From a virus, in the IMG/VR virus record IMGVR_UViG_3300045988_180675, positions 96,001 through 160,000 of that record: a DNA stretch of 64,000 bases; one strand, 5' to 3'. The notes below the pieces were generated by a model that saw only the letters and a program-made list of their open reading frames with translations, made no database searches and had not been told where the DNA came from. Each line of letters begins with the position of its first letter. Within the stretch, counting starts at the first letter, position 1. Below, piece by piece: positions 926 through 47,869 of this stretch. The translations under genes and the position numbers were made by a program.

Positions 926-968
926 TTCTCCATTTCTCATCAAATAATTGGACATAAGTATTATGCAA
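926..968 (-). promoter_or_regulatory. type-A promoter/leader cassette, copy A1
   Basis: Read on the minus strand: CATAAT (960-965), then 21 nt, then TTATTTGATGAGAAATGGAGAA. Same architecture as ten other copies. Confidence 0.5.
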
Positions 969-981
969 GAAGAAAAGAAAT

Positions 982-1004
982 AAAAAAAGACGGAATAACC
1001 GTCT
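982..1004 (-). terminator. intrinsic terminator after the helicase gene
   Basis: Hairpin AGACGG-AATAA-CCGTCT (988-1004), followed on the minus strand by a T-run (plus-strand A-run 982-989). Confidence 0.75.
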
Positions 1005-1010
1005 TTCTTT

Positions 1011-2969
1011 TTATAACTGAGCTAATGCCTCTTCGATTTCCTGTAGGAAACGGTTGTATGTTGGGTTTTCAATCGTTCCAAAAGCGATTTCTTGTCCATA
1101 TAAAGATAGGCTATCACGAGCACGAGTGATCATTACGAATAATAAACGTCGTAGCTCTTCAGCTTTTCTTGTGGATAATTTCTCTTTTTCGAATCCTGAA
1201 ACAGAACCAAATACATGTTTCCATTCTAAACCTTTTGATGAGTGTACTGTAATCAACATTACACCATGACCTAAAACAGAACGCTTGAACATCATGTTAT
1301 CTCCAAACGATAAGAAGTTTGAAACATAATACATGATTTCGTCGGCATCCATATCATTGAACTTTTCGGAAAAATTCAATACTGCTTCATCGCCATGTGA
1401 AATCTCCTGGATAAATTCCATGATCATAAGTTTCTTCGCAGCTGGATCTACAGCTTTGATTGTGTTCACCTTATTTACCACTTCATTTACATAGGTAGAC
1501 ATGATTTCTGGTCCAGCTTCAATAATATCTCCATCAAATAAGGCGTTTGCTACTTCTAGCATATCCATATTTGCATCGGCTGCATCTGGTTTAGAAATTT
1601 CTCGAATAAATTTCAACATCGCTATGACACGGTGGTTTTCAATTAATAACTCTGGGAAACCAAACTTAGATGGAATTCCAAAAGCTGTTAAGCGATCTGC
1701 AACGCTCTTTAACTCTCCCTTTGAGAAAGCTAAGAAAGCAATGTTGTCAGGATCTTCACCTGCATCAATAAGAGCCTTGATATCACGAGCAATCGTATCG
1801 ATTTCTCCTTTTTCAAGATTCTTGCCCATATTTAATTTCGATGGCTTCTGATCGTATTTTCTCTTGAATTTCTGTACCGTTGGCATCATGCCTGGTTCAC
1901 GAGATGCGATAAGAGTCTTATCGATCTTATTTTTATTTCTATCAATAATGATGTTTGCTAACTTAATTACGTTTTCAATACATCTGTAATTGATATCCAT
2001 AAATACATCGTGGATGTCGAGTGTAAGCTTATTTCCATCCTCGTCTTTCTTATATAAATAATCTCCTAAATTGATTAAGAAATCTGGAGAAGTATTCATT
2101 AACGATTCATAGATCGCTTGTGAATCATCTCCCACAACAAGTAAAGACTTAAATGACTTCATGTTGATCAAGTGATTTAATAGCTTCATCTGATCTTCCG
2201 AAGTATCCTGTGCTTCATCAACAATAATGTGAGCAAAGTAGAAATTATCATCTAAAAATGTTGGATTGTCATCTAAAATTTTTAATGCCAATACGATCAT
2301 TTCGTCGAACGTGATTACTGGAGCTTGGAACTCATTATCGAATCCCTTCTTCATAGAATCATATTCTGGATACATCGCAATGATCTTCAAGGCAATATTT
2401 GATGGTAAATCCACTTTTCTGTCTGTTAAGAGTTCCGATACGTCATTATAGGCAATATCAGACAACGCTCTTCCTTCCACAACCAGTCTTGAAACTCGAT
2501 GTAGAATCATAGACATGATATCTAATGCTCCAGTCGTACCGTAACCTGAGCTTGTATAGTTCTGGAAATGAACTCCAGTCCACTCTACGATCTCATGACG
2601 GCGAATCAGAGCATCACACATTGCTCTATCTTGTACTTCATCAATAACTGACGGAATATGTCGATATCCTAATGTGTGCCACATTTTTTTAATAATTTCG
2701 AACTCGAAAGCATGGAAAGTTGTAGCGGTCAAACCACAAACAGGCTTTCCAACCATCTTATTTACACGAGCTGCCATCTCAGAAGCACCATTCTTAGAGA
2801 ATGTACTTAGGAAGATTTCTTCAGGTTTAGCACCGACATCTTCTAAAAGATGCTTAACTCTAGCACTAATGACCTGTGTCTTTCCTGTTCCTGCACCCGC
2901 TACAACTCTGTTGTAAGGATGCGTTGTATTGATGGCTGCTAATTGCCCATCATTAAACTTGATTTCCAT
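1011..2969 (-). CDS. UvrD/Rep/PcrA-family SF1 DNA helicase
   Basis: 652 aa. Motifs AGAGTGKT (Walker A), VDEAQDT (II), VGDDSQAIY (III), NYRC (IV), VHSSKGLEW (V), ITRARD (VI). GGAGG SD upstream of the ATG at 2969. Confidence 0.9.
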   Translation of the reverse strand: MEIKFNDGQLAAINTTHPYNRVVAGAGTGKTQVISARVKHLLEDVGAKPEEIFLSTFSKNGASEMAARVNKMVGKPVCGLTATTFHAFEFEIIKKMWHTLGYRHIPSVIDEVQDRAMCDALIRRHEIVEWTGVHFQNYTSSGYGTTGALDIMSMILHRVSRLVVEGRALSDIAYNDVSELLTDRKVDLPSNIALKIIAMYPEYDSMKKGFDNEFQAPVITFDEMIVLALKILDDNPTFLDDNFYFAHIIVDEAQDTSEDQMKLLNHLINMKSFKSLLVVGDDSQAIYESLMNTSPDFLINLGDYLYKKDEDGNKLTLDIHDVFMDINYRCIENVIKLANIIIDRNKNKIDKTLIASREPGMMPTVQKFKRKYDQKPSKLNMGKNLEKGEIDTIARDIKALIDAGEDPDNIAFLAFSKGELKSVADRLTAFGIPSKFGFPELLIENHRVIAMLKFIREISKPDAADANMDMLEVANALFDGDIIEAGPEIMSTYVNEVVNKVNTIKAVDPAAKKLMIMEFIQEISHGDEAVLNFSEKFNDMDADEIMYYVSNFLSFGDNMMFKRSVLGHGVMLITVHSSKGLEWKHVFGSVSGFEKEKLSTRKAEELRRLLFVMITRARDSLSLYGQEIAFGTIENPTYNRFLQEIEEALAQL

Positions 2970-2998
2970 TTTTTATTTTCCTCCTTAGCCTTAATGGC

Positions 2999-3838
2999 TT
3001 ATTCTTCTTCATCTATAACTGTGATAGGAGCTTTCTTGTATTTGCAAATATTGAAGAATTCACAAAACTTACAATTTTCTTCTAATTGCTCTTCTTCTCC
3101 TACTCCATTAATAAACTTTTGAATGATCGGACTCATATAGGTATCGATTTCAGCAGTGTTTCCCATGTAATCTCCTTCAAGACTTACGATGTTCCCACTT
3201 CCGAAGAATGATTGCTCATTTAAGTTCCATGTTTGGGTATCGGTATCCTTCTTTAGAAAATAGAAAGATGCTGTGATATTTTTGAACCCCATTTGACGAC
3301 CATACAAAATTGTTGCGTACAATTGAAGATCTCTCTTCATTGCGTTCTTATTGCCTTTTTGTGTTACATTTGGTTTACCAGTTTTATAGTAAACAAATTC
3401 CACACGATCTTCGCCATCTATACCTTTAGATACAAACGCTGCATGTGGAGCTACCATAATTGGCTTGAGCTGATCTGATACTGAAACAAGTCGTTTTGCG
3501 AAGAAAGATGGAACACGATGTTCATCTCTTAAATATCGCATGACTCTTCTCCAGTCTGCTAATAAAACCTGCATTTTCTGCTGTGGGTTTAAAAAGCCAG
3601 CCTCAATATAACGGGAATTCATGTATTCCATGATATTCCGATCTTCCCGCTCATTGTAACGAAGTGCTTGCTGGATCGTATCTGCACAAATTTCAGCACG
3701 CTTATAAAAGGTGCCAGTTGGGACTGATGACTTAATAGAATCACCAAGAACCCCTTTGAACGTTCTACGTTTTTTACAAGCTCCATATTCTGATAATGAG
3801 CTTAATCGATCATAATCGATTTTTGTTTGATCACACAT
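2999..3838 (-). CDS. PD-(D/E)XK nuclease with Cas4/AddB-like Cys cluster
   Basis: 279 aa. IDGED...EFVYYKTGK core, QLYATILYG motif, one N-terminal Cys (YGACKK) plus C-terminal CKFCEFFNICKY (C-x2-C-x5-C) as in 4Fe-4S Cas4/AddB nucleases. Strong SD. Confidence 0.7.
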   Translation of the reverse strand: MCDQTKIDYDRLSSLSEYGACKKRRTFKGVLGDSIKSSVPTGTFYKRAEICADTIQQALRYNEREDRNIMEYMNSRYIEAGFLNPQQKMQVLLADWRRVMRYLRDEHRVPSFFAKRLVSVSDQLKPIMVAPHAAFVSKGIDGEDRVEFVYYKTGKPNVTQKGNKNAMKRDLQLYATILYGRQMGFKNITASFYFLKKDTDTQTWNLNEQSFFGSGNIVSLEGDYMGNTAEIDTYMSPIIQKFINGVGEEEQLEENCKFCEFFNICKYKKAPITVIDEEE

Positions 3839-3856
3839 TTTATTTTCCTCCTAATT

Positions 3857-5404
3857 TTACTTGAATACGATCAATTTCTTTAGACATGATGCACTTTCGT
3901 TGTAGACAATGATTTCATCATTTCTAAATCCTACACCGCCACCTGCATGATACCATGTTGAGTCGTATCCTTTTTCCTTAAACATGTTCAATAACTCTGT
4001 TGTCTTTTCTGGAGCACCACCGATGCATCCATTTGGTTCGTATGTGTTACCTGTGGCAACACGATAAACGCCCATAATGGAAATCTTACCATCAATACCT
4101 CTATCTCTTGAATATGTGCTTGAGCAATATCCAGCAGACTTGAGAGGATTGTTAGCAAAGTATGAACCATTACCAAATGCCTTACCACAAATACGTGCGT
4201 TAGGATTTAATAATAGCCCCATCTTAATGATACTAACCCAGTTGCAGTTTGCAGAACCATGGAACAGATCATGCTCAACGCTGTTGAACATTCCGTTTTT
4301 AAGGTATTCTTCATAACGAACAACTTGATCATGTGGTGTGATGTCATATACTTCAACGACATCAATCTTTCCAGAAAGCTTATACTCTTTAATCGTTTGT
4401 TCCATCTCTTCAGGTGTTTCCTTGCGTACAGAGACATTTCCGAATGGACTCTCAAATTTTTCTGTCTTGCTATGTGTTTGTGAAACTAATGCTTCCATAG
4501 AAGACACAATTTTGTTTACCCAATCTAGTTTTGCCTCCATCTGTTTGAACAACTCTTCTTCTGTAAGAGGAATCGTTGGAACATGGAAATCCTTGATTTG
4601 GAAATTCTTACCAACCTTTGGTGCTGCAATTGCAATAAAGTCATCAATACATCCATTGAAAAGCGTTGCATCTGTTAGATTGCACATCTTGTTGTACAAC
4701 TTACGTGCAGATGTCACTTGTCGGCGTGTATATGGTGATGATGAAGAATAGAAATTCATTTCAAAACCACTTTCTGATAACGTCTCTTTCGCAACTTGAA
4801 TCAGCCATCTGTAAAGCGTAACGGCTTCATCATCTGATGTTTCTTCAACTGTTGGCTTTTTGAAGAATGCAGAAATCTTTGATTCATCTTCGTCCTGCTT
4901 TAATTCTTCCGTGTAGTCCTTAAATCCAGCGGCAAGCTTTTGGTAATATCTTAACCAATAAAGTTGCGATGGCTGAGCTTTATGAACCGTACCGTCCTCA
5001 AGTCGATCCATTCCCTTTTTACCAATAATACCAGACACAGCACCAATATTAAGTGTACGTGGTCCCATATTATTTGGGTTAAGGTTGTAACGAGAACGCA
5101 AATTAGTTTCAGCATCAACGTGCCTTAGTAATTTTTGTTCATATAGGCTCTTTGCTAATCTGAAAGTATCAGCAGTGATACGAATAACGATGTTATCGTC
5201 TTCTTCATTTTTGACTCTTTCATAGATTTCTACATGAGCCTCTTTGATTCCATCTTCGCTTTTAAGATGAATTGAGTTTGGAACTGGAAAACCATCTGCG
5301 AACAATGTTTCCGCAACCTTTTTCCATAATTCTCCTTCTTCGTTGATACCAGCTGGGAAATCCAACTGATACACTTTTCCTGTTGTTTCCATCGTAACTT
5401 TCAT
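3857..5404 (-). CDS. PARP-like ADP-ribosyltransferase (WGR-like / helical regulatory / H-Y-E catalytic architecture)
   Basis: 515 aa. The C-terminal ~165 aa align by eye with the PARP1 catalytic core: LFHGSANCNWVSIIKMGLLLNP (PARP1 [22 protein letters not shown]), GNGSYFANNPLKSAGYC (GKGIYFADMVSKSANYC), NDEIIVYN (YNEYIVYD). The preceding helical segment resembles the PARP regulatory domain. Confidence 0.85.
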   Translation of the reverse strand: MKVTMETTGKVYQLDFPAGINEEGELWKKVAETLFADGFPVPNSIHLKSEDGIKEAHVEIYERVKNEEDDNIVIRITADTFRLAKSLYEQKLLRHVDAETNLRSRYNLNPNNMGPRTLNIGAVSGIIGKKGMDRLEDGTVHKAQPSQLYWLRYYQKLAAGFKDYTEELKQDEDESKISAFFKKPTVEETSDDEAVTLYRWLIQVAKETLSESGFEMNFYSSSSPYTRRQVTSARKLYNKMCNLTDATLFNGCIDDFIAIAAPKVGKNFQIKDFHVPTIPLTEEELFKQMEAKLDWVNKIVSSMEALVSQTHSKTEKFESPFGNVSVRKETPEEMEQTIKEYKLSGKIDVVEVYDITPHDQVVRYEEYLKNGMFNSVEHDLFHGSANCNWVSIIKMGLLLNPNARICGKAFGNGSYFANNPLKSAGYCSSTYSRDRGIDGKISIMGVYRVATGNTYEPNGCIGGAPEKTTELLNMFKEKGYDSTWYHAGGGVGFRNDEIIVYNESASCLKKLIVFK

Positions 5405-5480
5405 TTTATTTTCCTCCTTAATTTACGATATTTTATATATAAAATTTATTCGATGTTTTTTATTTTCCTCTTTTTTAATA

Positions 5481-5520
5481 TTCTCCATGCTCATCAAATA
5501 AATACATATATATCTTGCTA
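5481..5520 (-). promoter_or_regulatory. type-A promoter/leader cassette, copy A2 (PARP operon)
   Basis: Minus strand: CAAGAT -10-like hexamer (5512-5517), 19 nt to ATC, then TTATTTGATGAGCATGGAGAA. Confidence 0.5.
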
Positions 5521-5532
5521 TAAAAAAGACAA

Positions 5533-5560
5533 TAAAAAAAAGAAGGAAATTACTCCTTCT
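5533..5560 (-). terminator. intrinsic terminator
   Basis: Hairpin AGAAGGA-AATTAC-TCCTTCT (5541-5560), flanked by A and T runs. Confidence 0.75.
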
Positions 5561-5570
5561 TCTTTTTTTA

Positions 5571-5756
5571 CTACTCGTAAAATTTGTAATGTGTTCTTGC
5601 AAAGTAACGACTTGCCACATAAGCAGAAAATGAGATTAAAGCCATAAAACATAAGAATGTTGTCATTGTTTCCCCAATTCCAACGAAAATACAGGCTACA
5701 AATAGAAGTGCAACACCAACCAGTATGCACTTCAAAGCCAATAAAATTAGCTTCAT
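5571..5756 (-). CDS. small two-TM membrane protein (paralog of 6529..6702)
   Basis: 61 aa and hydrophobic. SD AAGGGAGAG upstream. Shares IGE(T/N)xTxFLCF...AYVAS(R/K)YF with the 57-aa protein. Confidence 0.65.
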   Translation of the reverse strand: MKLILLALKCILVGVALLFVACIFVGIGETMTTFLCFMALISFSAYVASRYFARTHYKFYE

Positions 5757-5768
5757 GAATTCTCTCCC

Positions 5769-6227
5769 TTACTCAACGTTGTACTGTGCGATAGCATAGT
5801 ATGTCTTTCCTTCATCAAGAGTTCTGATGAGATCTGGCAACGATAATGCTTCGTTCTCAAATAGGAATAAATCTCTTGATTCATCCATTGTGAATCTAAA
5901 TTTTCTGCGTAAATCCATGTATTCGATCAGATTTTTACTAGAAAATTCTTCTAGGGAAACCTTTTTCATTTCCTCTAAAACGTTTAAGAATTCTTCATAG
6001 TTTTTCTTAAAATAAAGATTCTTATCATTCACAACAAATCCACCATCTTCTGTGCCAGAAATGCCATCTGATTTGATAAGGTTTTCAACAAAAAACTTCT
6101 TATCATCGTTATCATCCAATTCAGAATAAGCATCGTGGAACGGTAGGAAATTATCAACAGATTCTGCTGACATTACCTCTTCATCTTTCTGTGATGAAAT
6201 TAAAACTACTGAAAAAAATATTGACAT
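5769..6227 (-). CDS. acidic hypothetical protein (152 aa)
   Basis: Start trimmed from 6377 to the ATG at 6227 (MSIFF...), which is preceded by AAGGAGGAAAATAAG. The longer track ORF runs through promoter cassette A3. Confidence 0.65.
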   Translation of the reverse strand: MSIFFSVVLISSQKDEEVMSAESVDNFLPFHDAYSELDDNDDKKFFVENLIKSDGISGTEDGGFVVNDKNLYFKKNYEEFLNVLEEMKKVSLEEFSSKNLIEYMDLRRKFRFTMDESRDLFLFENEALSLPDLIRTLDEGKTYYAIAQYNVE

Positions 6228-6255
6228 CTTATTTTCCTCCTTTGCTCTTTTGAGC

Positions 6256-6293
6256 TTCTCCATGATATCAAATAAATACATATATATTATGTT
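6256..6293 (-). promoter_or_regulatory. type-A promoter/leader cassette, copy A3
   Basis: CATAAT (6286-6291), then 19 nt, then TTATTTGATATCATGGAGAA. GCTC-AAAA-GAGC hairpin (6244-6255) abuts the SD. Confidence 0.55.
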
Positions 6294-6302
6294 TGAAACA
6301 TA

Positions 6303-6330
6303 AAAAGAAAAAAGGGAGAATACCCCCCTT
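6303..6330 (-). terminator. intrinsic terminator
   Basis: Minus-strand RNA GGGGG-GUAUU-CUCCC (one G-U pair), followed by UUUUUUCUUUUU. Confidence 0.55.
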
Positions 6331-6336
6331 TTTCTT

Positions 6337-6489
6337 TTATCCTCTTTTTTCGGACATTGCAATGCTACATATAACAACTAATACAAAGAAAACCGCAGGT
6401 TTCATCTTTGTAGTTGCTAATATAACATTTACCAAGATAAAGGCAATAATTAGGCATATAGCCAAAATTATCAATCTATCTCTTCTCAT
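6337..6489 (-). CDS. small hydrophobic protein (50 aa), not in the ORF track
   Basis: ATG at 6489 is preceded by GGAAGGAGGTGG. Translates to MRRDRLIILAICLIIAFILVNVILATTKMKPAVFFVLVVICSIAMSEKRG, with TAA at 6337-6339. It falls below the track length cutoff. Confidence 0.55.
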   Translation of the reverse strand: MRRDRLIILAICLIIAFILVNVILATTKMKPAVFFVLVVICSIAMSEKRG

Positions 6490-6528
6490 TTCATTCCACC
6501 TCCTTCCCAGAGGTTTACTAATTTCTGC

Positions 6529-6702
6529 TTAAACTTCCATCACAAAATATTTTGATGCAACATAAGCTGCGAAAACCAACACTACTACAAAACATAAGAA
6601 TATTGTAGTGTTTTCACCGATTGCGACAAAAGCAACCGCTCCAAGCAATACAAATACTGCTGCCAAGATAAAATTGTAAGCATACTTTAATAAATTTAAC
6701 AT
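6529..6702 (-). CDS. small two-TM membrane protein (57 aa)
   Basis: Start trimmed to the ATG at 6702 (MLNLLKY), preceded by AGGAGGGAAATTAAA. Paralog of 5571..5756. Confidence 0.65.
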   Translation of the reverse strand: MLNLLKYAYNFILAAVFVLLGAVAFVAIGENTTIFLCFVVVLVFAAYVASKYFVMEV

Positions 6703-6730
6703 TTTAATTTCCCTCCTAGCCATTTCGGCT

Positions 6731-6770
6731 TTTCCAATAATCATCAAATAATTACACTTAAATTATGTCA
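6731..6770 (-). promoter_or_regulatory. type-A promoter/leader cassette, copy A4
   Basis: CATAAT (6762-6767), then 19 nt, then TTATTTGATGATTATTGGAAAA. AGCC-GAAAT-GGCT hairpin (6718-6730) abuts the SD. Confidence 0.5.
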
Positions 6771-6782
6771 TAAGGAAAGAAT

Positions 6783-6805
6783 AAAAAAAAGAAGGATTAT
6801 CCTTC
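6783..6805 (-). terminator. intrinsic terminator
   Basis: Hairpin GAAGGA-TTAT-CCTTC (6791-6805), followed by a minus-strand T-run. Confidence 0.7.
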
Positions 6806-6825
6806 TTTTCCGTTTTACACTCCTG

Positions 6826-7200
6826 TTACCAAGCAAAACAAATCTTAAAATCGTTATCTAATAATTCGCAATCTTCACGAAGAATAATTTCTACATTTTT
6901 ATTGCTCGGTTTTACAGCACTCAAAATAAAGTTCCCGAAATTTTCTGAGAATTTACTTTCTTCAACGCTTGCGAGTTCTTTGAATTCATCAGGTGCTGAT
7001 ACAACAACGTTGTCTGATTCAAATTCTGAAATGTATAAATTGTCTAGCTTTATACTATAGTGATGACCAGCCACATGTTCAACGCTGTATTCGTTTGCGT
7101 GCATTACAAACGACACATCGCCAGCATTGATTCTGATTGCTTCGATCTGTAATAGCTCTTCAAGATTTTTTGCTGATATTAGCTCTAATTCCAAATTCAT
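6826..7200 (-). CDS. hypothetical protein (124 aa)
   Basis: ORF with a GGAGGAAAATTAAAA SD lying inside the end of the upstream gene. Third gene of a three-gene operon. Confidence 0.65.
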   Translation of the reverse strand: MNLELELISAKNLEELLQIEAIRINAGDVSFVMHANEYSVEHVAGHHYSIKLDNLYISEFESDNVVVSAPDEFKELASVEESKFSENFGNFILSAVKPSNKNVEIILREDCELLDNDFKICFAW

Positions 7201-7202
7201 TT

Positions 7203-7607
7203 TTAATTTTCCTCCTGGGCTTTTTTCGCCTCTTTTTTATATCGAATCTTGTAGAGGATATTTCCCTTGCGGTCACGTCCTCCATTTACTACTGTGGCGT
7301 TTTCTTCGAAGAATACCTTTTCCTGCTTATACAGTTCGCTAACACGCTTTATGCCAAGCTTTTTAGCAAAGTGTGCAGCTGTATTAAGTGCCATGCCTTC
7401 TTCATGGTTTTCATTTGTAAAAGCACCAAAGAAATTTGTAGACTTCCCTGGATCCAACATGGCAACTGCTAGGTGTGCGTGGATCTCAAAGATACAGGCA
7501 ATTTCATTTGCTTCTCTTTCTTCTTCCACTGTTAATTTTTGCCCTTTGAAAAAGGCTTTTGAAAATAGCTCTTTTGAGCGTCTTTGTAAATCTCCCATTC
7601 TACTCAT
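7203..7607 (-). CDS. hypothetical protein (134 aa), tandem paralog of 7624..7953
   Basis: Shares R(M)xxLxxRxxELxxxxFxxxxKLTxEEExExxEIxCIxxIH and EK/RVxExYxxExxFFxxxATV with its neighbour. SD present. Confidence 0.65.
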   Translation of the reverse strand: MSRMGDLQRRSKELFSKAFFKGQKLTVEEEREANEIACIFEIHAHLAVAMLDPGKSTNFFGAFTNENHEEGMALNTAAHFAKKLGIKRVSELYKQEKVFFEENATVVNGGRDRKGNILYKIRYKKEAKKAQEEN

Positions 7608-7623
7608 CTTTATTTTCCTCCTT

Positions 7624-7953
7624 TTAAATATCGTAAGATGTAGAGTTGTACGAACAACCTTCTGAATCTGTGAAAACGTCTTTAGTAACTGTAGCGTGCT
7701 TGTCGAAGAATTCTACTTCTTTAGCGTAGATTTCCTTAACTTTTTCTTCTCCTAATGTTTTTGCATATTCTTTAGCATAGTTTTTGTAACCATTAAAGAA
7801 GTCTGTTCCATAGACCAAACAAGAATGTATCATGGAAATACATCTTATTTCCTCTAATTCTAATTCCTCTTCTGCTGTTAATTTGCGTTCATTAGTGAAA
7901 CTGATTTGAAGTAGTTCACGCTCTCTCTGTTCTAATCGTTCCATTCTTTTCAT
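7624..7953 (-). CDS. hypothetical protein (109 aa), tandem paralog
   Basis: ORF with an AGGAGGAAATAAT SD. Similar to 7203..7607. Confidence 0.65.
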   Translation of the reverse strand: MKRMERLEQRERELLQISFTNERKLTAEEELELEEIRCISMIHSCLVYGTDFFNGYKNYAKEYAKTLGEEKVKEIYAKEVEFFDKHATVTKDVFTDSEGCSYNSTSYDI

Positions 7954-8005
7954 ATTATTTCCTCCTAGCCTTACTGGCTTTTATTTTTCGCCTTATTCGA
8001 ATATT

Positions 8006-39771: not shown

Positions 39772-42700
39772 TCACTCCGTAGGATTGTAGCCTGCTGGTG
39801 GATGGAACCCGTATGTCCAGCCACTCCAATCTGTAGGACCTTCACTGATTTCTTCACCAGTTTGGTCGCCGCCGATCGCACCTTGTACGCCACCTACTTC
39901 ATCGATATGGGCACCAACTGTTCTGCCGCCACCAATATAGATTTCTGTATGTTCTTGCCGCCACAAGATGTCTCCTGGTCTTAGATCATCTGGAGATGTG
40001 ATTTCGTACTGGACGAAGCCTGCTTCAGTCATTAGGTTGATCTGACTATAGGTTGAGAATGCTGGTGGTCCGACATTAAATCCAGCTTGTGTAAGGGCAT
40101 AATAAACTAGTGATGAGCAGTCGTAGTCTGGGTTTCCTAAACGATGAACCCAAGAATATCCATGTGAATCATCTGCAGCAATTTCTCTTGCCCATTTTAC
40201 ATAAGGTAAATTAGAAATACCACCAAAGCCATCTGCCCATTCTGGGTTTGCATTTCCGCCAACATAACCAAATGAAAGAGCCCTGATTTTGACATTAAAT
40301 ACCTTTTCAAAGTCGCTAGAGCGTAACGCAATATAACTTTGTACTAGCTTGTCCCCATAAGTCTTGTTTGATAGATCCCAAGAATAGTTAAACATCTTGT
40401 CGTTTTCTTCTAATTTTGCAAGATCACATAGAACTGGGATCTTGACCGTTGCGACGATCTTCTTCCCATTAACTTCTACTTTGTTTCCTTCTTCATCTGT
40501 CCAACTTTCCTTTTGCCCACTGGCAGTTGTTCTAAGTTCTACTGTGATACCCTGACCATGACCTGCAATTGCATAATCTGCTAATGTGACACAATACTTT
40601 TGGAAATGGTAGTTATCCTTTGGATCACCACTGTATCCAGCCACGGCACCCATACTTAGGATTTCTTTTACAAACAATAGTTGTCCAGCTCCAGAACTAC
40701 TTGATGTTCCCGATGTTCCTGCTTGTACGACATCGATTGCTCCAGCACCCGTTACTTCAACGTTGGCTAGATCAACCTCCATGTTTTCTGGAATCTTTTC
40801 ATCGATCCATTCCTTATATTTTGCATGTCTTGAATTGTATAAGGAAGCACCGATTTGGCTACCTTCATTACGCTTTTTCAAATTCTTTAAAATATTTTCT
40901 GTACTGTAATCTCCATTACAAGCTTGGAATACTGCATCTACAGGGCTAGAAGCATAATCGCCTCCCCCAAGTTCTGCTAGTTGGGTATACCAAAATACAG
41001 CTCTTAAATTCGTTGTGTAAGTATTGGCACAATAATTCCAATGTTTTACCACACGTTCTGCTGCAATTCTATCTTGTAGCTTTTTACCTTCGCTGCTTGT
41101 TAAAATTTTCTTTACAACTTCTGTTTGTTCAGCATTTAGTTCTATCCGATCTGCTTCCCAATCCTTCTCAAGAAGAGGAGCGATGATTCCATTACTATCG
41201 AGTTCGGAGAACTTACTTTGGTTTTCGCTTCTGAATCTTGTTAAATAATTTCTTGCATTATTTCCATATAAAGAACTCCAACCAATTGTAGAAGCCACTT
41301 CTCCACCTGCTTCAGCGTTGATTACATTACTATAATCTCTCTGCCCATAAACCTGTCCGCCAGTTTCCATGGCACCAAGCATATTTAACATGATATCCAT
41401 TTGCGTTTCAGAGCCAAGTTTAGCGGAAGAATCGCCAGATGTATTCTGGATCGTTGTATTTGTTTTGGCAGCTTTACCAGCTGTGCCATTTGGAAATACA
41501 ATATCGCTTTCTGGACTTAATAAGAATTTATCATTTCCGATCGTATTTCCTTCCCCATCTACAAAGTCATAGGTAGGAATCACGGCAGATACGCCGATGT
41601 TCTTTTTAAATAATCCAGAAAAAATACTTCCATTTTTATCGGTTTTGCTACCAGACAAATTGTATTCAGCTGAGAAATTCTTTAAATTTGACATTGTGAT
41701 GCTGCCTGCATCGATCTCTGCCCCATCTAAGGTAGCCTTTGTAATTGTAATATCTTGTAATGGAACGTAATCGGATCCAGCCTTCTTCTTTTCTTCTTCT
41801 GTAAGGGTTTCTCCCTTTAAGATCTTGTAATAAGCCTTCAAGCGTTCCTGCAACATGTTTGCCATTTCTTGCATCATGTTCTCATCTTTATCTGCTGACG
41901 ACTTATTTACAGCTTGTACAGGTTGGACGATATGGGTATTGTTACTTCTGATTCTGCCCTGATACAAAGCTGTACCACCAAAGATTCCACCCATCGTCAC
42001 GGATGTTGCAAGACCTGCTGTAAGAGCCTTTTTACCAATACTCTGTACAATAGCTTTTCCGCCATTCGCAATGCCCTGTGGGCTGAATATGTTTTGACTA
42101 GGTGTAACATTTCCTCTTCTTGCAAGGAACTGTTTCATCTTGCTGGCTTCTTTGTCTGCCCTTGCAAGGGAGCCTTCTCTTTGTGCCCCAATTAAACTAT
42201 CTTTACCTGTAAGAACCTTATCTTTATCCCCGATAGCTCCTGTTGATATTTTATCTTTTACTAATGTTCTTTTTTCCGTTGAAAGCTGCTGTCCTGCATC
42301 TACGTTGACTTCTCCTCCACTAATTTTAACAAGCTTCTTCTTTTCTGGTTGAAGAACGGATTTTTCTTGTGATGGTTTTAGTTTCTTAGCAATGCCTGCA
42401 TCGTATTCTTTCTGAGAGATATATCGCATGGTGCCATCAGCACGCTTTTCAATGAATCGCCCTGATGATTTCAGATACTCGACATTTTCTTTTGGACCTG
42501 GTGAATTTATAATGCCAGAACTTTGTCCAATGGAATTCTTCTCACTTATCGAAGAAATACCTGGCATGTTGTTTCTTGTGATGTTTGAGATTGCATCTTT
42601 TAACTTCTTCGCTTTTTGTTCATCAATTGACTTTTGCTGTTCTAAAAATGAATTTTTTACAATCTGTTTATTAGGTTGAGCAATTTGACGTTCATTCTTT

Positions 42701-44358
42701 ATAACCCGCTTATTATCTGTAGGTACATTTACCTTTTTCATTAATCCACTGCGGTCAAAATTTTGTTGTTGTGTAATTGCTCCGCTATCGCCTTGACTAA
42801 AAGCTCCACTTGAGAAATCATTCTTACTTGATATTCCACTATTTATATTTGGTTTGTTATCTGTAATATTTGGATGATTGTTTGGAATATCTCCAATTTG
42901 TTTCTTCGCTATATTTTCAGGGCTAATATTTCTTTTAACATTCGCAATATTTTTATTGATCTTATTTAATAATTCTTGTTCTTTTTCAGCTACATGTTGG
43001 ATAACTTCACTACTATATTTTTGTTTATTAACAACTTTATTTACATCTGTCTTTAATCCACTAAAGTTACCTTCTAGTTTATCTTCGATAAATGTTTCTT
43101 TCTGGGAGAATGCTTCATTACTAAAGTTTTGGTGAGAATCAATTCCAGTTCTACCAATATTCGTATTTTGTGCTTGTTGATTCTTAAACCCACTATTTTC
43201 CTGAATAATATTCTTATCTGCATTCTTAACTACTTGCTTATTTCCTGTGTGGGTATTCGATAATCTTTCATTGATCTTATCTGATAGTCTTTGACGCTCA
43301 TAACTAAGTGCATCTGATGGCTGCTCTTTTGTAGCCGTAGAGAAAGCGTCATTACTTAATTCTTTGTTTAAATTTGAAAAGACTTCTTGTTGAGCCTGTG
43401 GAAAGGTTCTTTCCCTTACTCTTTCCTCATTTAAAAACTTATGGTCAGCCTTTGCTGCATGCTCTTGCTTAGCAGCTTTCTTATCAATATCATTGTTGAT
43501 CCGTTTTGCTAGTTGTTGTCTTTCATATTCGATCGGATCAGAAGCTGTTGCTGTATCAATCTGTGAAAAAGCATCCCTATTGAGTTCTGTTGGGGGCTCA
43601 ATATTTTGTCTAAACTCTCTTGACGGCTGATCAAAATAGTTATTGTTTAAACGTTGCTCTTTAAAGCCTTCTCTTCCGTTAGGGGTCTTTTTAATTTCTT
43701 TATTTAATTTTTCTGATAATCTTCTTTGTTCGTATTCAATTGGGTTAGATGCCTCTGGGACATCTTCAATATTATCTTCTAATAGGTTCTCAACGCTATC
43801 CCCATGAGGCTTATTTAAAGGGTTAAATTGAGCCGATTGTGACTCTAATGGAGTACGTTCCAATCTGTTCTCAAACGGCTCTGTACTGCTATTTAACATC
43901 GCTTCTTGTTTGTTTAATAACTCTTGTTCTCTGTATTGTTGTTTGATTAATTCTTTACGATGTTCTTCTTGTTGTTTTTTAAAAAAATCTTCTTTTGCTT
44001 TTTTCTCTTTTTCACCTGAGAATCTTGCGTGATCCTTTTCTACATCGATTTCTTTTGGTTCATCAACTTTGTCTGTGTTTTCTTCTAAATCCTTATCATC
44101 TTCATTTGGTTCTTCTTCTAAATCTTCATTACTATCATCTTGATCCTGATCACGCTCTAATTCATCCTTATCATCATCTTCTGATTTTTCTTCTTCGTTT
44201 CCTTCTTTTTCAGTATCTTCTTCAGAAGCTTCTTCATCGTCCATGCTTAAAGCATCTCCTAGATCTGGAGACTGTTCTTCTTTTTCTTCACTGCCAGAAC
44301 CTTCGCTTGGTTCAATGTCATCAGTTTCTTTTATTTCTTTCTCATTGATTTCTGTCAT
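39772..44358 (-). CDS. large T4SS-associated cell-wall hydrolase with C-terminal NlpC/P60 domain (1528 aa)
   Basis: C-terminal DCSSLVYYALTQAGF (Cys) and HTEIYIGGGRTVGAH (His). One central TM (LTAGLATSVTMGGIFGGTALY). Extremely acidic N-terminus and internal repeats. Confidence 0.75.
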   Translation of the reverse strand: MTEINEKEIKETDDIEPSEGSGSEEKEEQSPDLGDALSMDDEEASEEDTEKEGNEEEKSEDDDKDELERDQDQDDSNEDLEEEPNEDDKDLEENTDKVDEPKEIDVEKDHARFSGEKEKKAKEDFFKKQQEEHRKELIKQQYREQELLNKQEAMLNSSTEPFENRLERTPLESQSAQFNPLNKPHGDSVENLLEDNIEDVPEASNPIEYEQRRLSEKLNKEIKKTPNGREGFKEQRLNNNYFDQPSREFRQNIEPPTELNRDAFSQIDTATASDPIEYERQQLAKRINNDIDKKAAKQEHAAKADHKFLNEERVRERTFPQAQQEVFSNLNKELSNDAFSTATKEQPSDALSYERQRLSDKINERLSNTHTGNKQVVKNADKNIIQENSGFKNQQAQNTNIGRTGIDSHQNFSNEAFSQKETFIEDKLEGNFSGLKTDVNKVVNKQKYSSEVIQHVAEKEQELLNKINKNIANVKRNISPENIAKKQIGDIPNNHPNITDNKPNINSGISSKNDFSSGAFSQGDSGAITQQQNFDRSGLMKKVNVPTDNKRVIKNERQIAQPNKQIVKNSFLEQQKSIDEQKAKKLKDAISNITRNNMPGISSISEKNSIGQSSGIINSPGPKENVEYLKSSGRFIEKRADGTMRYISQKEYDAGIAKKLKPSQEKSVLQPEKKKLVKISGGEVNVDAGQQLSTEKRTLVKDKISTGAIGDKDKVLTGKDSLIGAQREGSLARADKEASKMKQFLARRGNVTPSQNIFSPQGIANGGKAIVQSIGKKALTAGLATSVTMGGIFGGTALYQGRIRSNNTHIVQPVQAVNKSSADKDENMMQEMANMLQERLKAYYKILKGETLTEEEKKKAGSDYVPLQDITITKATLDGAEIDAGSITMSNLKNFSAEYNLSGSKTDKNGSIFSGLFKKNIGVSAVIPTYDFVDGEGNTIGNDKFLLSPESDIVFPNGTAGKAAKTNTTIQNTSGDSSAKLGSETQMDIMLNMLGAMETGGQVYGQRDYSNVINAEAGGEVASTIGWSSLYGNNARNYLTRFRSENQSKFSELDSNGIIAPLLEKDWEADRIELNAEQTEVVKKILTSSEGKKLQDRIAAERVVKHWNYCANTYTTNLRAVFWYTQLAELGGGDYASSPVDAVFQACNGDYSTENILKNLKKRNEGSQIGASLYNSRHAKYKEWIDEKIPENMEVDLANVEVTGAGAIDVVQAGTSGTSSSSGAGQLLFVKEILSMGAVAGYSGDPKDNYHFQKYCVTLADYAIAGHGQGITVELRTTASGQKESWTDEEGNKVEVNGKKIVATVKIPVLCDLAKLEENDKMFNYSWDLSNKTYGDKLVQSYIALRSSDFEKVFNVKIRALSFGYVGGNANPEWADGFGGISNLPYVKWAREIAADDSHGYSWVHRLGNPDYDCSSLVYYALTQAGFNVGPPAFSTYSQINLMTEAGFVQYEITSPDDLRPGDILWRQEHTEIYIGGGRTVGAHIDEVGGVQGAIGGDQTGEEISEGPTDWSGWTYGFHPPAGYNPTE
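42768..43761 (-). repeat. intragenic protein repeats (AFS...DPIEYERQxLxxxIN units)
   Basis: SNPIEYEQRRLSEKLNKEI, DAFSQIDTATASDPIEYERQQLAKRINNDI, DAFSTATKEQPSDALSYERQRLSDKINERL, plus degenerate EAFSQ and GAFSQ units. Confidence 0.6.
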
Positions 44359-44382
44359 TTAAAGATGCTCCTTTCGTACATC

Positions 44383-44398
44383 TTATATTATGCTATTT
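44383..44398 (-). promoter_or_regulatory. type-C promoter, copy C3
   Basis: Minus strand: AAAAATAGCATAATATAAG (CATAAT at 44387-44392). The SD sits in the loop of an AGATG/CATCT stem. Confidence 0.4.
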
Positions 44399-44411
44399 TT
44401 CATAAAATCAA

Positions 44412-44438
44412 AAAGAAAAAGACTATATTTTTAGTCTT
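44412..44438 (-). terminator. orphan terminator (copy of the one at 45984-46011)
   Basis: Hairpin AAGACTA-TATTTT-TAGTCTT flanked by A/T runs. No intact gene ends here. Confidence 0.55.
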
Positions 44439-44445
44439 TTCTTCT

Positions 44446-44515
44446 TTAATCCATATTCTTGTGAACTGCTTTGCATACTAAATACACGATTATCATGTAT
44501 ACCAAATATATGATT
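44446..44515 (-). pseudogene. decayed copy of the 3' end of a 45997..46737-like gene
   Basis: By eye about 75-80 percent identical to 46012-46085 (both contain TTTAATCCATATT...ACTGCTTT...). The frame is broken by TAG. Confidence 0.4.
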
Positions 44516-44519
44516 ATCG

Positions 44520-44690
44520 CCAGTCAACTACCCACCACCTAAAGGTAGTGGGCTTGTAACTGCCCAGTCGTACTAGCGGCTTACGCCTCCGACCTTTAAC
44601 CCCAATGAGCATTGCTACTCAAAGTGGCGTTACATCATAGGATGGTTGACACAACACCCTTTACGATAAAGTTTACTCTACCGTAACTGT
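44520..44690 (-). ncRNA. candidate omega-RNA (reRNA) scaffold of TnpB
   Basis: GC-rich, hairpin-dense ~150 nt that overlaps and follows the tnpB 3' end in an otherwise AT-rich window. This is the position expected for TnpB guide-RNA scaffolds. Confidence 0.5.
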
Positions 44691-45812
44691 ATCTGGTACT
44701 TGAGCTTCTTTGAGATAGCTGATTCCCATGTGATACAGATTCATAGCTCCAATGCGATCATCGTTAGAACTGTAGCCACAGTTTTTACAAGTAAACAGAT
44801 GTATCTTCTTGTTTCGATTAGACTTTTCAATATGTCCACATACAGGGCAACATTGACTTGTGTAACGAGGATCAACCTTAATAACAGTCGATTGATTCTG
44901 TTTTGCCTTGTAAATCAGTTTTTGTTCAAGGTCATAGAATGACCACGATACAGATACATAACGATCTTTTGTTTTAACACGTTCTGTAACACTACGAATA
45001 CCTGTCAGATCTTCAAGAACAAAGAGTGTATGCTTCGGATTAGATTCAACGAGTGCCTTACTAATGCAATGATTAACATCTTGCATCCAACGGTTTTCTC
45101 GCTGACCGATAGCTTTCAATCTGCGTCTTGCAGATGGAGTCTGACGCTTTTGTAGTTCTTTACGGAGCTTGGAGTAGTGGGCACGTTTCTGTTTGATAGA
45201 TCTGCCACTTACAAATCCAGATTTGTGCTTACTATCATAAGTAGCAATAACAAAGTTGATACCTCTATCAATCCCTACAACGTTACAGATATCTGATATG
45301 TTACTTTCTTCGACCTCATAACTTACAGGGATATGTAAAAAATACTTACCATGCTTATTTACAAGCTTGGCTGTACCAAACTTATAGGTTGTATGATCGA
45401 AGTATTTAGACATGCCCTTTGCAAAGTATGGTAGCTTGACACGACCATCCAGTGTATTAACTGAAAAACAGTTCTGCGTTAAGGAATAATCTCGATTCCA
45501 AACAAGGTCGTATTGAGGCTTATCAAAATTTGGCTTGATCCATTTTTTCTGGTTTTCAAGAATTGTCTTGTACCTTGCAATAACGGTCTTAAAAACAGAT
45601 TGAGCCATTTGTGATCTGAGTCCAAATTGTTCTCTAAGTGTAGAGTACAAAACCTGATTCAAAGAAAACTGCTTTAAGTTCTTTGTATTAAATATATATT
45701 CAGATACAAAATTACAGGCATCAGAATAGGCAGACATCGTTTTATCAAGTAAAGCTTTACTGTCTGTATCAACTGATATTTGGATTTTAGCTGTAACTGT
45801 CATCCGCTCCAT
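44673..45812 (-). CDS. tnpB: RNA-guided endonuclease TnpB (IS605 OrfB family)
   Basis: 379 aa. RuvC-I VGIDRGINF, RuvC-II FVLEDLTGIR, zinc finger CCPVCGH...CKNCGY, RuvC-III NDDRIGAMN. The catalytic D-E-D residues are all present. Confidence 0.9.
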   Translation of the reverse strand: MERMTVTAKIQISVDTDSKALLDKTMSAYSDACNFVSEYIFNTKNLKQFSLNQVLYSTLREQFGLRSQMAQSVFKTVIARYKTILENQKKWIKPNFDKPQYDLVWNRDYSLTQNCFSVNTLDGRVKLPYFAKGMSKYFDHTTYKFGTAKLVNKHGKYFLHIPVSYEVEESNISDICNVVGIDRGINFVIATYDSKHKSGFVSGRSIKQKRAHYSKLRKELQKRQTPSARRRLKAIGQRENRWMQDVNHCISKALVESNPKHTLFVLEDLTGIRSVTERVKTKDRYVSVSWSFYDLEQKLIYKAKQNQSTVIKVDPRYTSQCCPVCGHIEKSNRNKKIHLFTCKNCGYSSNDDRIGAMNLYHMGISYLKEAQVPDTVTVE

Positions 45813-46749: not shown

Positions 46750-46989
46750 TTACTCGATTACAATATCGAACGTGTTATCACTTTCAAAAGTTTCTAGCAC
46801 ATCTCTGTTCAAATATGCGGCAAAACGTTCTTGTGGTACCCAGTCTGTTTTCGTGAGCCAGTGGACGTGCAGTCCGTTAGGTGTTGTCGCCTGAACTATA
46901 TACCAACCAGCAAAATTGTTTTTAGCCCACAAAGAAATGTTTTCGTACTTCTTTTCTTGAATCTGTTCTAAACATTCTCTTAACTTCAT
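46750..46989 (-). CDS. hypothetical protein (79 aa)
   Basis: ORF with an AAAGGAGAAAATGAA SD, behind promoter B8. Confidence 0.6.
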   Translation of the reverse strand: MKLRECLEQIQEKKYENISLWAKNNFAGWYIVQATTPNGLHVHWLTKTDWVPQERFAAYLNRDVLETFESDNTFDIVIE

Positions 46990-47030
46990 TTCATTTTCTC
47001 CTTTTCTAAGCGTATTTTACCATAAAGGAT

Positions 47031-47055
47031 ATTATCTTGCAATATACTGTTATGT
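47031..47055 (-). promoter_or_regulatory. type-B promoter, copy B8 (inverted box)
   Basis: Minus strand: ACATAACAGTATATTGCAAGATAAT. Confidence 0.5.
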
Positions 47056-47063
47056 CATTTTTA

Positions 47064-47100
47064 GCAAAAGAAAAAGAGGGGCGGTACCACCAACCTCTCT
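47064..47100 (-). terminator. GC-rich intrinsic terminator
   Basis: Minus-strand stem AGAGG(TT)GGTGG / CCGCCCCTCT with a T-run. Lies 48 nt after the annotated stop at 47158. Confidence 0.65.
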
Positions 47101-47157
47101 TTCTTTTAGACCTGATCTTCCTCAAATAGAATCGCAACATCGTCGATTACGATATCG

Positions 47158-47772
47158 TCATTCTTCAATGTAAAGTGTGAAAACATACTTATCATCCTTC
47201 CATTGTTCATCCATCTTATCAAAGCCCAAGAATACATTGTGGAATTCTGTAGCCATGACCTTAAAATCAATATGATGATTTTTGAGCTTTTTGGCTTCTG
47301 TTGGGTAGACCATTGAATAAGAACTCAACAATTCCATTCCAACGAGATCTTCCCAGTTTACCTGAGTGTTTTCAAAGTCTGGTGTTCCATCTTTATAGAA
47401 TGCCCAGTCAATGTAGACAACCGAACCGTCGAAGTTGACGATCTTTTCCTCAATGTTCTTTAAAGCCTTCTGCCCAGCTGTAAATTCATCGGCAGAACCC
47501 ATTAGATATCTGTTAATATCTTCTAGCTTCTGAATTTGATTCTGGAAGTCCTTTCCTTTTAGAACTGTGTTTGATCCAGATGAAGCACAATAGCAAACAG
47601 TGTTAAATGGGTTCTTTACACTATTTACACCATTCTGTGTTTGATAAAGCATTTTCATGCGAAGCAAGAATTCATCTGTCACCTCTAGTCCTGGGTAGGT
47701 TGAACCGCATAGATAATGGAAGAATACATTTTCGATCTTACCATTCCTTCTATTTACTACTAATAATTTCAT
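47158..47772 (-). CDS. hypothetical protein (204 aa)
   Basis: ORF with an AGGAGGAAAATCAA SD, behind cassette A11. Confidence 0.65.
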   Translation of the reverse strand: MKLLVVNRRNGKIENVFFHYLCGSTYPGLEVTDEFLLRMKMLYQTQNGVNSVKNPFNTVCYCASSGSNTVLKGKDFQNQIQKLEDINRYLMGSADEFTAGQKALKNIEEKIVNFDGSVVYIDWAFYKDGTPDFENTQVNWEDLVGMELLSSYSMVYPTEAKKLKNHHIDFKVMATEFHNVFLGFDKMDEQWKDDKYVFTLYIEE

Positions 47773-47829
47773 TTGATTTTCCTCCTATAGCCATTTTGGC
47801 TTTATTATTTCCCACCTTATTCGAATCTT

Positions 47830-47869
47830 TTCTCCATGATCATCAAATAAAGTCATATTTATTATGCGA
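47830..47869 (-). promoter_or_regulatory. type-A promoter/leader cassette, copy A11
   Basis: CATAAT (47861-47866), then 19 nt, then TTATTTGATGATCATGGAGAA. AGCC-AAAAT-GGCT hairpin (47789-47801) abuts the SD. Confidence 0.55.

Follow-up and report, generated by a model that had tools for sequence, protein, structure and literature searches.

Why should dnaE, the gene of an SMC-like ATPase, a PARP/UvrD operon and many ORFan genes all begin with nearly the same stretch of DNA? The question is raised by 64,000 nt of the IMG/VR virus record IMGVR_UViG_3300045988_180675 (positions 96,001 to 160,000; hereafter the window), which, judged by its gene content, is part of a Gram-positive conjugative-plasmid-like element. 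Eleven genes or operons of the window open with a common promoter and a common first ~25 transcribed bases. The best explanation, to which we give about an even chance, is that the shared portion is a tag in the 5′ untranslated region, that is, a structured leader joined to a promoter module. What the data show is a promoter followed by a tag that is both transcribed and structured. Its function is our inference: most likely it acts in mRNA stability and/or start-codon access by way of a putative factor.

Eleven cassettes share a promoter and the start of a leader

All eleven cassettes listed in the initial annotation of the window are present at the positions given there, on the minus strand, which is also the strand of all called genes (the few longer plus-strand open reading frames, ORFs, overlap called genes). 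They are a real, highly non-random, family-specific promoter-plus-leader module: a 21-mer with up to 3 mismatches has 6 matches in the window against 0.01 expected, a profile hidden Markov model built from the copies returns exactly these 11 sites at E<1e-3 and no further ones, and all eleven copies align when TTTGAT is used as the anchor.

Each copy carries a -10-like hexamer. CATAAT (8/11) and CAAGAT (2/11) occur as had been described, but the third form is CAGAAT, in a single copy, and TATAAT is found in none. The reported lack of a -35 element and of a TG extension is borne out, with 0/11 copies passing a two-hexamer sigma-70 scan and 0/11 having the extension. The distance from the hexamer to the conserved block, given earlier as 17-21 nt, is 9-12 nt (mode 10) when measured to TTATTTGATGA, and 13-16 nt (mode 14) when measured to TTGAT. 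The sequence ATGGAGAA had been counted in eight copies and is present in seven, its place being taken by ATGGATAA (23842), TTGGAGAA (34526), CTTGAGAA (8579) and ATTGGAAA (6731) in the others. A palindrome, ATGATCAT, had been regarded as a feature of the block; it occurs in only three copies (8006, 23842 and 47830), two of which, 8006 and 47830, are paralogous with ~110 nt in common. Conservation within the block is lowest at its centre, where the length also varies (by 3 nt). As the palindrome is not conserved, it provides no argument for an operator.

Directly 5′ of every copy, and missed by the initial annotation, lies a terminator-type hairpin with a T-run. A scan of 800-12600 finds 23 terminator-like sites where 5.6 are expected, and seven of them are the hairpins 5′ of the cassettes from 926 to 9401; the T-run falls at -34 to -28 in a set of 83 cassettes from the window and its relatives. 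A composite module is built around each cassette and consists of the terminator of the upstream unit, the promoter, a structured leader, a strong Shine-Dalgarno (SD) sequence and the gene. The promoter of this module lacks a -35; what it has is the T-tract (-34 to -28) and a -10 region that reads TAnnCATAATAnA.

The block as one arm of a predicted leader hairpin

We placed +1 at the conserved TG step 7 nt past the hexamer, so that leaders start with G(A/U)(C/A)UUUAUUUGAU.... On this numbering the block most likely represents mRNA nucleotides of about +4 to +25 (and not +10 to +30, as had been proposed), and is neither promoter nor palindromic operator. Downstream of each copy is sequence complementary to the block's 5′ half, which the initial annotation did not report. 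This complementarity is found on the sense strand only, and the block's 5′ half is therefore in RNA, which supports the earlier placing of the block 3′ of the hexamer in the start of the leader. A stem begins 1-5 nt from the predicted RNA 5′ end, with the U-rich half of the block (UUUAUUUGAU) as its 5′ arm, and the purine half of the block (UGGAGAA) is left unpaired in the window's family. The 3′ arm is conserved neither in sequence nor in position. It may be a proximal AAUAAGG (8006 and 47830), a segment 35-50 nt away (36 nt downstream in the PARP cassette, whose distal-arm fold recurs in relatives), or the SD-AUG spacer, start codon or first codons (6256, 9401 and 23842, the last pairing with the start-codon region and first codons at 23800-23812).

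For pairing tests, ~90 distinct cassette variants were gathered from related human oral metagenome contigs. The cassettes of each multi-cassette locus are all on the same strand (in the window, the gene strand), with the 13-16 nt distance from the hexamer fixed. Among 82 distinct leaders, the first paired nucleotide is at position 5 or earlier in 73, the start being a predicted one and the stems weak; the arm is part of a helix in 65, and 81 leave GGAG unpaired. The unpaired probability is 0.89 for GGAG, compared with 0.15 for the arm.

Four tests argue that this pairing is selected. In arm-swap comparisons of 92 cassettes, the native duplex is at -8.17 kcal/mol and swapped duplexes at -6.92 ± 0.15 kcal/mol, and with a single cassette for each of 23 arm classes the values are -7.40 and -6.09 ± 0.33 kcal/mol (p about 1e-4). 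The strands also differ: folding of +1 to +55 gives -7.9 kcal/mol for sense and -3.9 kcal/mol for antisense, with sense the lower in 70/78, whereas the sense-antisense difference in random sense-strand windows is only 0.7; G-U pairs make up 13% of the stem pairs. In an alignment made with a covariance model, pairing holds in 92.4% of cells (20-51% after sliding of the partner), and compensatory changes are seen in 5/12 pairs, a result reached by 1/500 shuffles (the cassette at 8006 matches this model with 67.6 bits). Lastly, explicit compensations can be read off the leaders: AAUUUG/CAAAU against AAUCUG/CAGAU, CUUUAUU/AAUAAGG against CUUUAAUUU/AAAUUAAAGG, and UUCAUUUGAU/AUUAAAUGAA, where the start-codon G has a C as its partner. 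Within the window, the block variant UUUAAUUUGAU of the cassette at 12276 is compensated by the 3′ arm AAAUUAAAGG at 12261-12270. No structure emerged from MAFFT with RNAalifold when cassette classes were mixed, as their 3′ arms lie at differing distances, and the arm-swap tests and the covariance model were used instead. A trans-antisense copy of the block was also sought on the sense strand; the window holds one TTCTCCAT, inside a gene.

Conservation in relatives and distant elements

An Rfam covariance-model search of the whole window returned only two sub-threshold chance matches at E<=1. Searches of PLSDB and INPHARED with the region and with a cassette gave nothing meaningful and no close relative of the window; the plasmids and phages to which the initial annotation had pointed for relatives, as covered by these two collections, did not yield the motif. 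A loose pattern (TTTGATGAN{1,3}ATGGAGAA) scanned over genome contigs had chance single matches only. Relatives were found by exact-protein look-up and pattern scans as human oral metagenome contigs of 160-206 kb, and one relative, a 178-kb contig, is in IMG/VR. Within the collections searched, the motif is confined to this element family. The initial annotation had suggested a dedicated common control, and this is plausible in view of that confinement and of a divergent sigma-70-family protein encoded in the window (see below).

By these comparisons the leader motif is not in Rfam and is conserved unusually deeply. The sigma-family gene beside dnaE has a single sister cluster, at 49% identity, and the dnaE cassette of that lineage keeps TTTATTTGATGAGTTGGAGA exactly, with changed flanks and a 3′ arm that has moved. 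More distant elements, whose SMC-like ATPase is 36-38% identical, lie on contigs of up to 284 kb and have in common with the window genes for SMC-like, RecD2, RecG-like, ParM and S26-peptidase proteins. Their cassettes are dissimilar at first sight (TGTGGCATACTA...ATTGATAAGATAGAG). The pattern CATA[AC]T-N13-17-TTGA-N3-8-[AG]GAG occurs 9 times in four distant loci (87 kb) against 0.12 expected, in each case on the strand that carries the target gene and those downstream of it, and several of these sites are upstream of a primase gene or of small genes just before primase. Four distant leaders were folded (from loci L307 and L308) and form 5′-terminal hairpins with the motif in the 5′ arm. The universal core thus reads: -10, a fixed 14-16 nt gap, TTGA(T/A), 3-6 nt, RGAG.

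The distant elements (L307, L308, L311 and L312; 43-284 kb) have cassette variants of their own, such as TGTGGCATACTA...TTGATAAGATAGAG. Their core comprises the SMC-like ATPase (in some fused to a MarR-type helix-turn-helix, HTH), RecD2, a RecG-like helicase, ParM and S26 peptidase, together with a DnaG/DUF3854 primase and a ribonucleotide reductase, the latter not found in the stretch of L311. These elements may be related to the 'Inocle' elements (PMC12340149), whose reported GC content is 32% in alpha to gamma and 24% in delta; the GC content of the element studied here is ~36%.

Promoter classes and a candidate sigma factor

Another way to view the cassettes is as one of three kinds of promoter in the window. 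Type A promoters are those of the block cassettes. Type B promoters have the ATAGCATAATATA -10 region of type A and a TG start context, lack the block, and are followed by a very short leader; their targets are transfer genes (type IV secretion system), surface-protein genes and an SSB-like gene. Type C promoters are sigmaA-type, with a TATAAT-like -10, mostly a TG extension and in one case a TTGACT -35, and a conserved 12-mer (ATATACTGTTAT or the complement of it) overlaps them. The 12-mer is probably a repressor operator, and a 62-aa protein of the Cro/C1 HTH type is encoded at 59157-59345.

The divergent sigma-70-family protein has 368 aa. It matches TIGR02937 at E 1.4e-8, below that family's curated cut-off, and its AlphaFold model has a predicted local distance difference test score of 66.5, with SigA, sigmaS and sigma32 as the top Foldseek matches at probability 1.0. 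On the basis of this profile and model, the protein is a sigma-70-family sigma factor, predicted to extend from region 2 to region 4. At 90% identity only two clusters of it exist among 5.8 billion proteins (99% and 49% identical), and it is found on one IMG/VR contig; homologs are too few for a sigma-promoter co-variation test. The promoter region of the sigma gene itself has a sigmaA-type -10 and the 12-mer of the other consensus-type promoters.

To judge from these arrangements, the element's own sigma may read the promoters without a -35. The presence of -35-less promoters next to sigmaA-type ones, and of a sigma gene under a sigmaA-type -10, suggests a phage-like transcription cascade, with the link between this sigma and the promoters as a candidate. 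The likeness to phage cascades lies in the extended -10-like motif, the lack of a -35 and the divergent sigma expressed from a sigmaA-type promoter. T4 late promoters consist of a -10 only (TATAAATA) and are read by gp55. The sigma found here differs from gp55 in being predicted full length.

Cassettes as junctions of gene shuffling

The cassettes behave as gene-shuffling junctions. Homology breakpoints between the window and its relatives form 35 clusters, 12 of them no more than 120 nt from a cassette, although only ~5.5% of the covered sequence is cassette. Relatives differ in which ORFan modules they carry between cassettes and in the order of modules, and the same gene (MKTLNKTT...) stands behind four different cassette classes among them. 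Seven of the eleven window copies are within 5.4-12.4 kb, among ORFs without Pfam matches. A 962-aa surface-protein gene with SSSPR-51 repeats and a type B promoter of its own (47913-50801) is missing from the 178-kb relative, the indel ending near the terminator-promoter junctions at ~47920 and ~50950.

This organisation recalls PeSL (promoter-early stem-loop) elements, which are mobile regulatory cassettes of T4-like phages (PMC2839356, PMC4122927). In both, a composite of ~100 bp is repeated that combines a terminator stem-loop, promoter, SD and ATG, the copies cluster next to ORFan genes of a hyperplastic region, and indels and replacements between relatives are bounded by the motifs. The replicon described here, however, is conjugative-plasmid-like (VirB4 of the CD1110 family, ParM, LPXTG adhesin) and not a T4-like phage; its cassette promoter is without a -35 and off the host sigma-70 consensus, as the scans above show, and it has an additional conserved, transcribed block with RNA structure. 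Integron attC sites were also considered and rejected: no R′′/R′ core sites (RYYYAAC...GTTRRRY) are visible in the repeats and no tyrosine recombinase was found in the window.

It might be argued from this mobility that the block is a homogenised repeat, kept by recombination or gene conversion among PeSL-type mobile promoter-terminator cassettes and with no function beyond a strong promoter region. The breakpoints and cassette swapping at the modules are in keeping with this, as is the paralogy of the copies at 8006 and 47830. The block, however, is far better conserved than the sequence on either side of it, it is intact in an ortholog with diverged flanks, and its core survives in families at 36-38% protein identity. 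We regard homogenisation as an improbable account.

Possible function of the tag and competing explanations

If the shared leader is indeed a 5′ tag, its 5′-terminal hairpin would shield the transcript from 5′-end-dependent decay and, in short-leader versions, would also occlude the start-codon region. The conserved single-stranded UUGAU...GGAG could serve as the handle for one putative trans-acting factor, and through that factor the element would bring dnaE, the SMC-like ATPase, the PARP/UvrD operon and many ORFan genes under joint control. For the promoter half, the probable reader is the sigma that the element itself encodes, and the repeated modules may double as homology patches for gene-cassette exchange.

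Precedents exist for parts of this scheme. Firmicute mRNAs are stabilised by 5′ stem-loops and SD-like polypurine tracts (Hambraeus 2002, Hue 1995, Agaisse & Lereclus 1996; cited in PMC3997798). The aprE leader, the SP82 polypurine stabiliser and the cryIIIA STAB-SD are like what is predicted for the cassettes, namely a hairpin a few nt from the 5′ end, with GGAG exposed and a strong ribosome-binding site (RBS) downstream, and differ in being features of single genes, whereas here a sequence-conserved tag stands on many genes and across divergent elements. The complementarity of the tag to the anti-SD is weak: the loop pairs with it at -6.3 kcal/mol, compared with -10.7 for a real RBS and -2.7 for random 13-mers, 8% of which match the anti-SD as well as the loop does. 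A pure STAB-SD role is therefore unconvincing.

Targets of CsrA/RsmA have a GGA in a hairpin loop and another in the SD, and plasmid- or ICE-encoded (integrative and conjugative element) CsrA homologs exist. The window's family likewise shows GGA in the loop, and AGGAGGA, which lies 20-60 nt further downstream, contains another. The distant families, however, have AGAG instead of GGA, and no CsrA-family Pfam match is present among the ~60 window ORFs.

A wider reading, which we offer tentatively as possible but doubtful, is that -10/14-16 nt/TTGA/3-6 nt/RGAG forms an ancient, superfamily-wide loading site or tag for a putative regulator (which might bind RNA, act as a nuclease or associate with sigma or RNA polymerase) of a replication and establishment regulon (dnaE, primase, SMC-like ATPase and anti-defence-like ORFans) in a large, hitherto undescribed group of 160-280 kb plasmid-like elements of human-associated Firmicutes, which would amount to a new global regulatory system and not to a variant of one already described.

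The significance of a structured tag, should it be confirmed, is that it would add a cis-regulatory RNA motif absent from Rfam, with ~90 natural variants that include compensatory changes and could be used directly to probe the structure and to capture the factor that binds it. It would also define a regulon and a likely cascade, from host sigmaA and a repressor to the element's sigma and on to promoters with or without the tag, in a widespread, uncultured and otherwise opaque family of giant oral plasmid-like elements. PeSL-like shuffling would be extended from T4-like phages to a conjugative element, and there would be a mechanism by which ORFan cargo is swapped without disturbing the expression of neighbours.

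Several observations weigh against a structured RNA tag. The start site, at the G 7 nt after CATAAT, is a predicted one. Covariation is limited and was counted on a model-fitted alignment, and the window's hairpins are A/U-rich and weak (-4 to -13 kcal/mol, z -0.25 to -2.6). Three of the eleven window copies fold differently: at 926 the usual arm helix is not used in the minimum-free-energy fold, at 6731 the block end is degenerate (...ATTGGAAAA) and a local alternative fold forms (z -0.25), and at 8579 GAGAAU pairs with an upstream GUUCUUA instead of the downstream arm. RGAG is sometimes paired, not looped, in the distant families, and Pfam finds no CsrA, Hfq, NusG/KOW or zinc-knuckle regulator among the ~60 window ORFs. 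The poor fit of the loop to the anti-SD belongs here too. Finally, the 5′ arm and loop are conserved in sequence while the 3′ arm is free, and the spacing from the -10 stays fixed through deep divergence; a signal acting at the DNA level or during transcription would predict such one-arm conservation and such fixed spacing as well or better.

Operators at the DNA level, and signals for pausing or antitermination early in elongation, are thus serious rivals. As an operator, the block (+4 to +25) would bind an element-encoded global repressor or activator that blocks promoter clearance at type A promoters, with the hairpin secondary, on the model of the KorA/KorB regulon of IncP plasmids or of LacI at O1. 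One conserved sequence at many promoters of one replicon is what the KorA/KorB systems also have; conservation of primary sequence on one arm only, a -10 spacing fixed at 13-16 nt through deep divergence, and the three window copies that keep the sequence without the arm helix are all consistent with it, and an XRE-type HTH protein is encoded in the window. KorA/KorB operators, however, are palindromes over or upstream of promoters, whereas the block is asymmetric, transcribed and complementary at the RNA level. It has neither dyad nor direct-repeat symmetry and a centre whose length varies by 3 nt, its sense-strand-specific complementarity and G-U pairs call for an RNA-level reason, and the XRE repressor is more plausibly matched to the separate ATATACTGTTAT 12-mer. 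On balance we think an operator unlikely. Two known operator types were compared with the block and set aside: it fits only one half-site of the Fur 7-1-7 box (by eye), and does not fit the cre box.

A pause or antitermination loading site would act on the polymerase itself, TTGA...ATGGAG holding or modifying early RNA polymerase, in the non-template strand or the nascent RNA, so that it reads through intrinsic terminators; this could take the form of a sigma-dependent pause, a NusG-type TTNTTT pause or a put/qut-like site. A bipartite motif at a fixed distance from the promoter, TTATTT in most copies, one-direction transcription punctuated by terminators and a sigma of the element's own would all suit such a site. 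TTNTTT, however, is lost in the distant families, and the motif does not look like the -10 of the element. Most type A units are short and have a terminator of their own at the end, and the window yielded no gene of the Q, N or NusG-like kind. Together these points make such a site quite unlikely in our estimation. We think it very improbable that the block instead serves as promoter to a single-subunit RNA polymerase of the phage type or to an alternative sigma, in which case transcription would start at GGAGAA (T7-like, ...CAT followed by GGAGAA), or that it opens a translated leader peptide (MEK...). The block does resemble a 21-bp T7-class promoter ending in GGAGA, but the 3′ arms are complementary to its 5′ half, which must then be transcribed, and no single-subunit polymerase gene was detected in the window; the T7-like reading was rejected on this pairing evidence. 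Among the mini-ORFs to which the initial annotation had drawn attention, six-codon ones are frequent, but the mini-ORFs have no SD, range from 4 to 22 codons with a length that follows hairpin geometry, and lose their AUG in diverged families that retain the motif, and the leader-peptide reading was rejected as well. With these alternatives weighed, the promoter-and-leader reading of the initial annotation is right in outline and partly supported, and a structured 5′ tag is the form of it that we prefer.

Coordinates and further observations

Table 1. Positions of cassettes, pairing arms, upstream hairpins, other promoters and the sigma gene in the window (start sites and arms are predicted).
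Feature	Position	Strand	-10 hexamer	+1	Block	Details
Cassette 1	926-965	minus	CATAAT 960-965	G 953	926-947	133-nt leader to ATG 820; ORF continues past window start
Cassette 2	5481-5517	minus	CAAGAT 5512-5517	G 5505	5481-5501	ATG 5404; operon of PARP-like, PD-(D/E)XK and UvrD-like genes
Cassette 2 distal 3′ arm	5444-5455	minus				CAUCGAAUAAAU; pairs with block nt 5492-5503; 36-nt loop
Cassette 3	6256-6291	minus	6286-6291	G 6279	6256-6275	
Cassette 3 3′ arm	6221-6228					Overlaps start codon 6227
Cassette 4	6730-6767	minus	6762-6767	G 6755	6730-6751	Start codon 6702
Cassette 5	8006-8042	minus	8037-8042	G 8030	8006-8026	
Cassette 5 proximal 3′ arm	7993-8000					GAAUAAGG; then GCC hairpin, SD, ATG 7953
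Cassette 6	8579-8616	minus	CAAGAT 8611-8616	A 8604	8579-8599	
Cassette 7	9401-9435	minus	9430-9435	G 9423	9401-9420	
Cassette 7 3′ arm	9370-9377					AUCAAAUA; adjoins start codon 9370
Cassette 8	12276-12314	minus	CAGAAT 12309-12314	G 12302	12276-12296	
Cassette 9	23842-23879	minus	23874-23879	G 23867	23842-23862	Target SMC-like ATPase gene
Cassette 10	34526-34560	minus	34555-34560	G 34548	34526-34545	Target dnaE, ATG 34502
Cassette 10 3′ arm	34514-34522					
Cassette 11	47830-47866	minus	47861-47866	G 47854	47830-47850	Start codon 47772; covariance-model match 69.2 bits
Cassette 11 3′ arm	47814-47827					
Terminator hairpin, cassette 1	982-1010	minus				From scan
Terminator hairpin, cassette 2	5534-5567	minus				From scan
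Terminator hairpin, cassette 3	6303-6338	minus				From scan
Terminator hairpin, cassette 4	6785-6811	minus				From scan
Terminator hairpin, cassette 5	8059-8085	minus				From scan
Terminator hairpin, cassette 6	8633-8663	minus				From scan
Terminator hairpin, cassette 7	9456-9479	minus				From scan
Terminator hairpin, cassette 8	12337-12357	minus				Read from sequence
Terminator hairpin, cassette 9	23901-23921	minus				Read from sequence
Hairpin upstream of cassette 10	34589-34613	minus				Atypical
Terminator hairpin, cassette 11	47887-47907	minus				Read from sequence
Type B promoter region	55327-55442	minus				
Type B promoter region	50801-50953	minus				
Type B promoter region	44358-44673	minus				
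Type B promoter region	39703-39772	minus				
Type B promoter region	30221-30330	minus				
Type C promoter region	58948-59157	minus				
Type C promoter region	46989-47158	minus				
Type C promoter region	35951-36042	minus				
Type C promoter region	34620-34646	minus				
Type C promoter region	29149-29211	minus				
Type C promoter region	21640-21733	minus				
Type C promoter region	19090-19157	minus				
Type C promoter region	14077-14189	minus				
Divergent sigma-70-family protein gene	34646-35752	minus				368 aa; profile and predicted fold

As part of a conjugative-plasmid-like element, the window has dnaE and genes for a VirB4-like ATPase (CD1110 family), an NlpC/P60 hydrolase, LPXTG adhesins and pilins, a ParM-like actin, two RecD2-like helicases, a UvrD-like helicase, a RecG-like helicase, an SMC-like ATPase, a PARP-like protein and TnpB. 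The operon behind the cassette at 5481 is a single one (1011-5404) and encodes a protein with a PARP catalytic domain (515 aa), a PD-(D/E)XK nuclease-like protein and a UvrD-like helicase. A 49-aa ORF starting at TTG, given by simple ORF calling, runs across the cassette at 8006 (7955-8104) and is probably spurious, the real target starting at 7953. The terminators at 982-1010, 5534-5567, 8059-8085 and 8633-8663 are bidirectional, consisting of an A-run, a stem and a T-run, and are reported by the scan on both strands.

Just 5′ of the dnaE cassette, 34589-34646 (minus strand) holds an extended -10 (TGATATAAT) with the 12-mer and, ~10 nt later, a hairpin and T-run. This arrangement could produce a very short transcript or act as an attenuator; alternatively, the hairpin could simply be the terminator of the sigma gene. 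A 71-aa ORF without a family match (35736-35951) overlaps the start of the sigma gene by 17 nt, and upstream of the sigma operon 36042-37316 encodes a HipA_C-like kinase-domain protein (a weak match at E 4e-6, below the Pfam cut-off). The TnpB gene (IS605 OrfB; 44673-45812) is followed by a GC-rich structured tail at 44440-44673 that is omega-RNA-like, and is absent from the 178-kb relative. In locus L295, near 84-126, the TnpB tail sequence lies in the opposite orientation, directly after a cassette SD.

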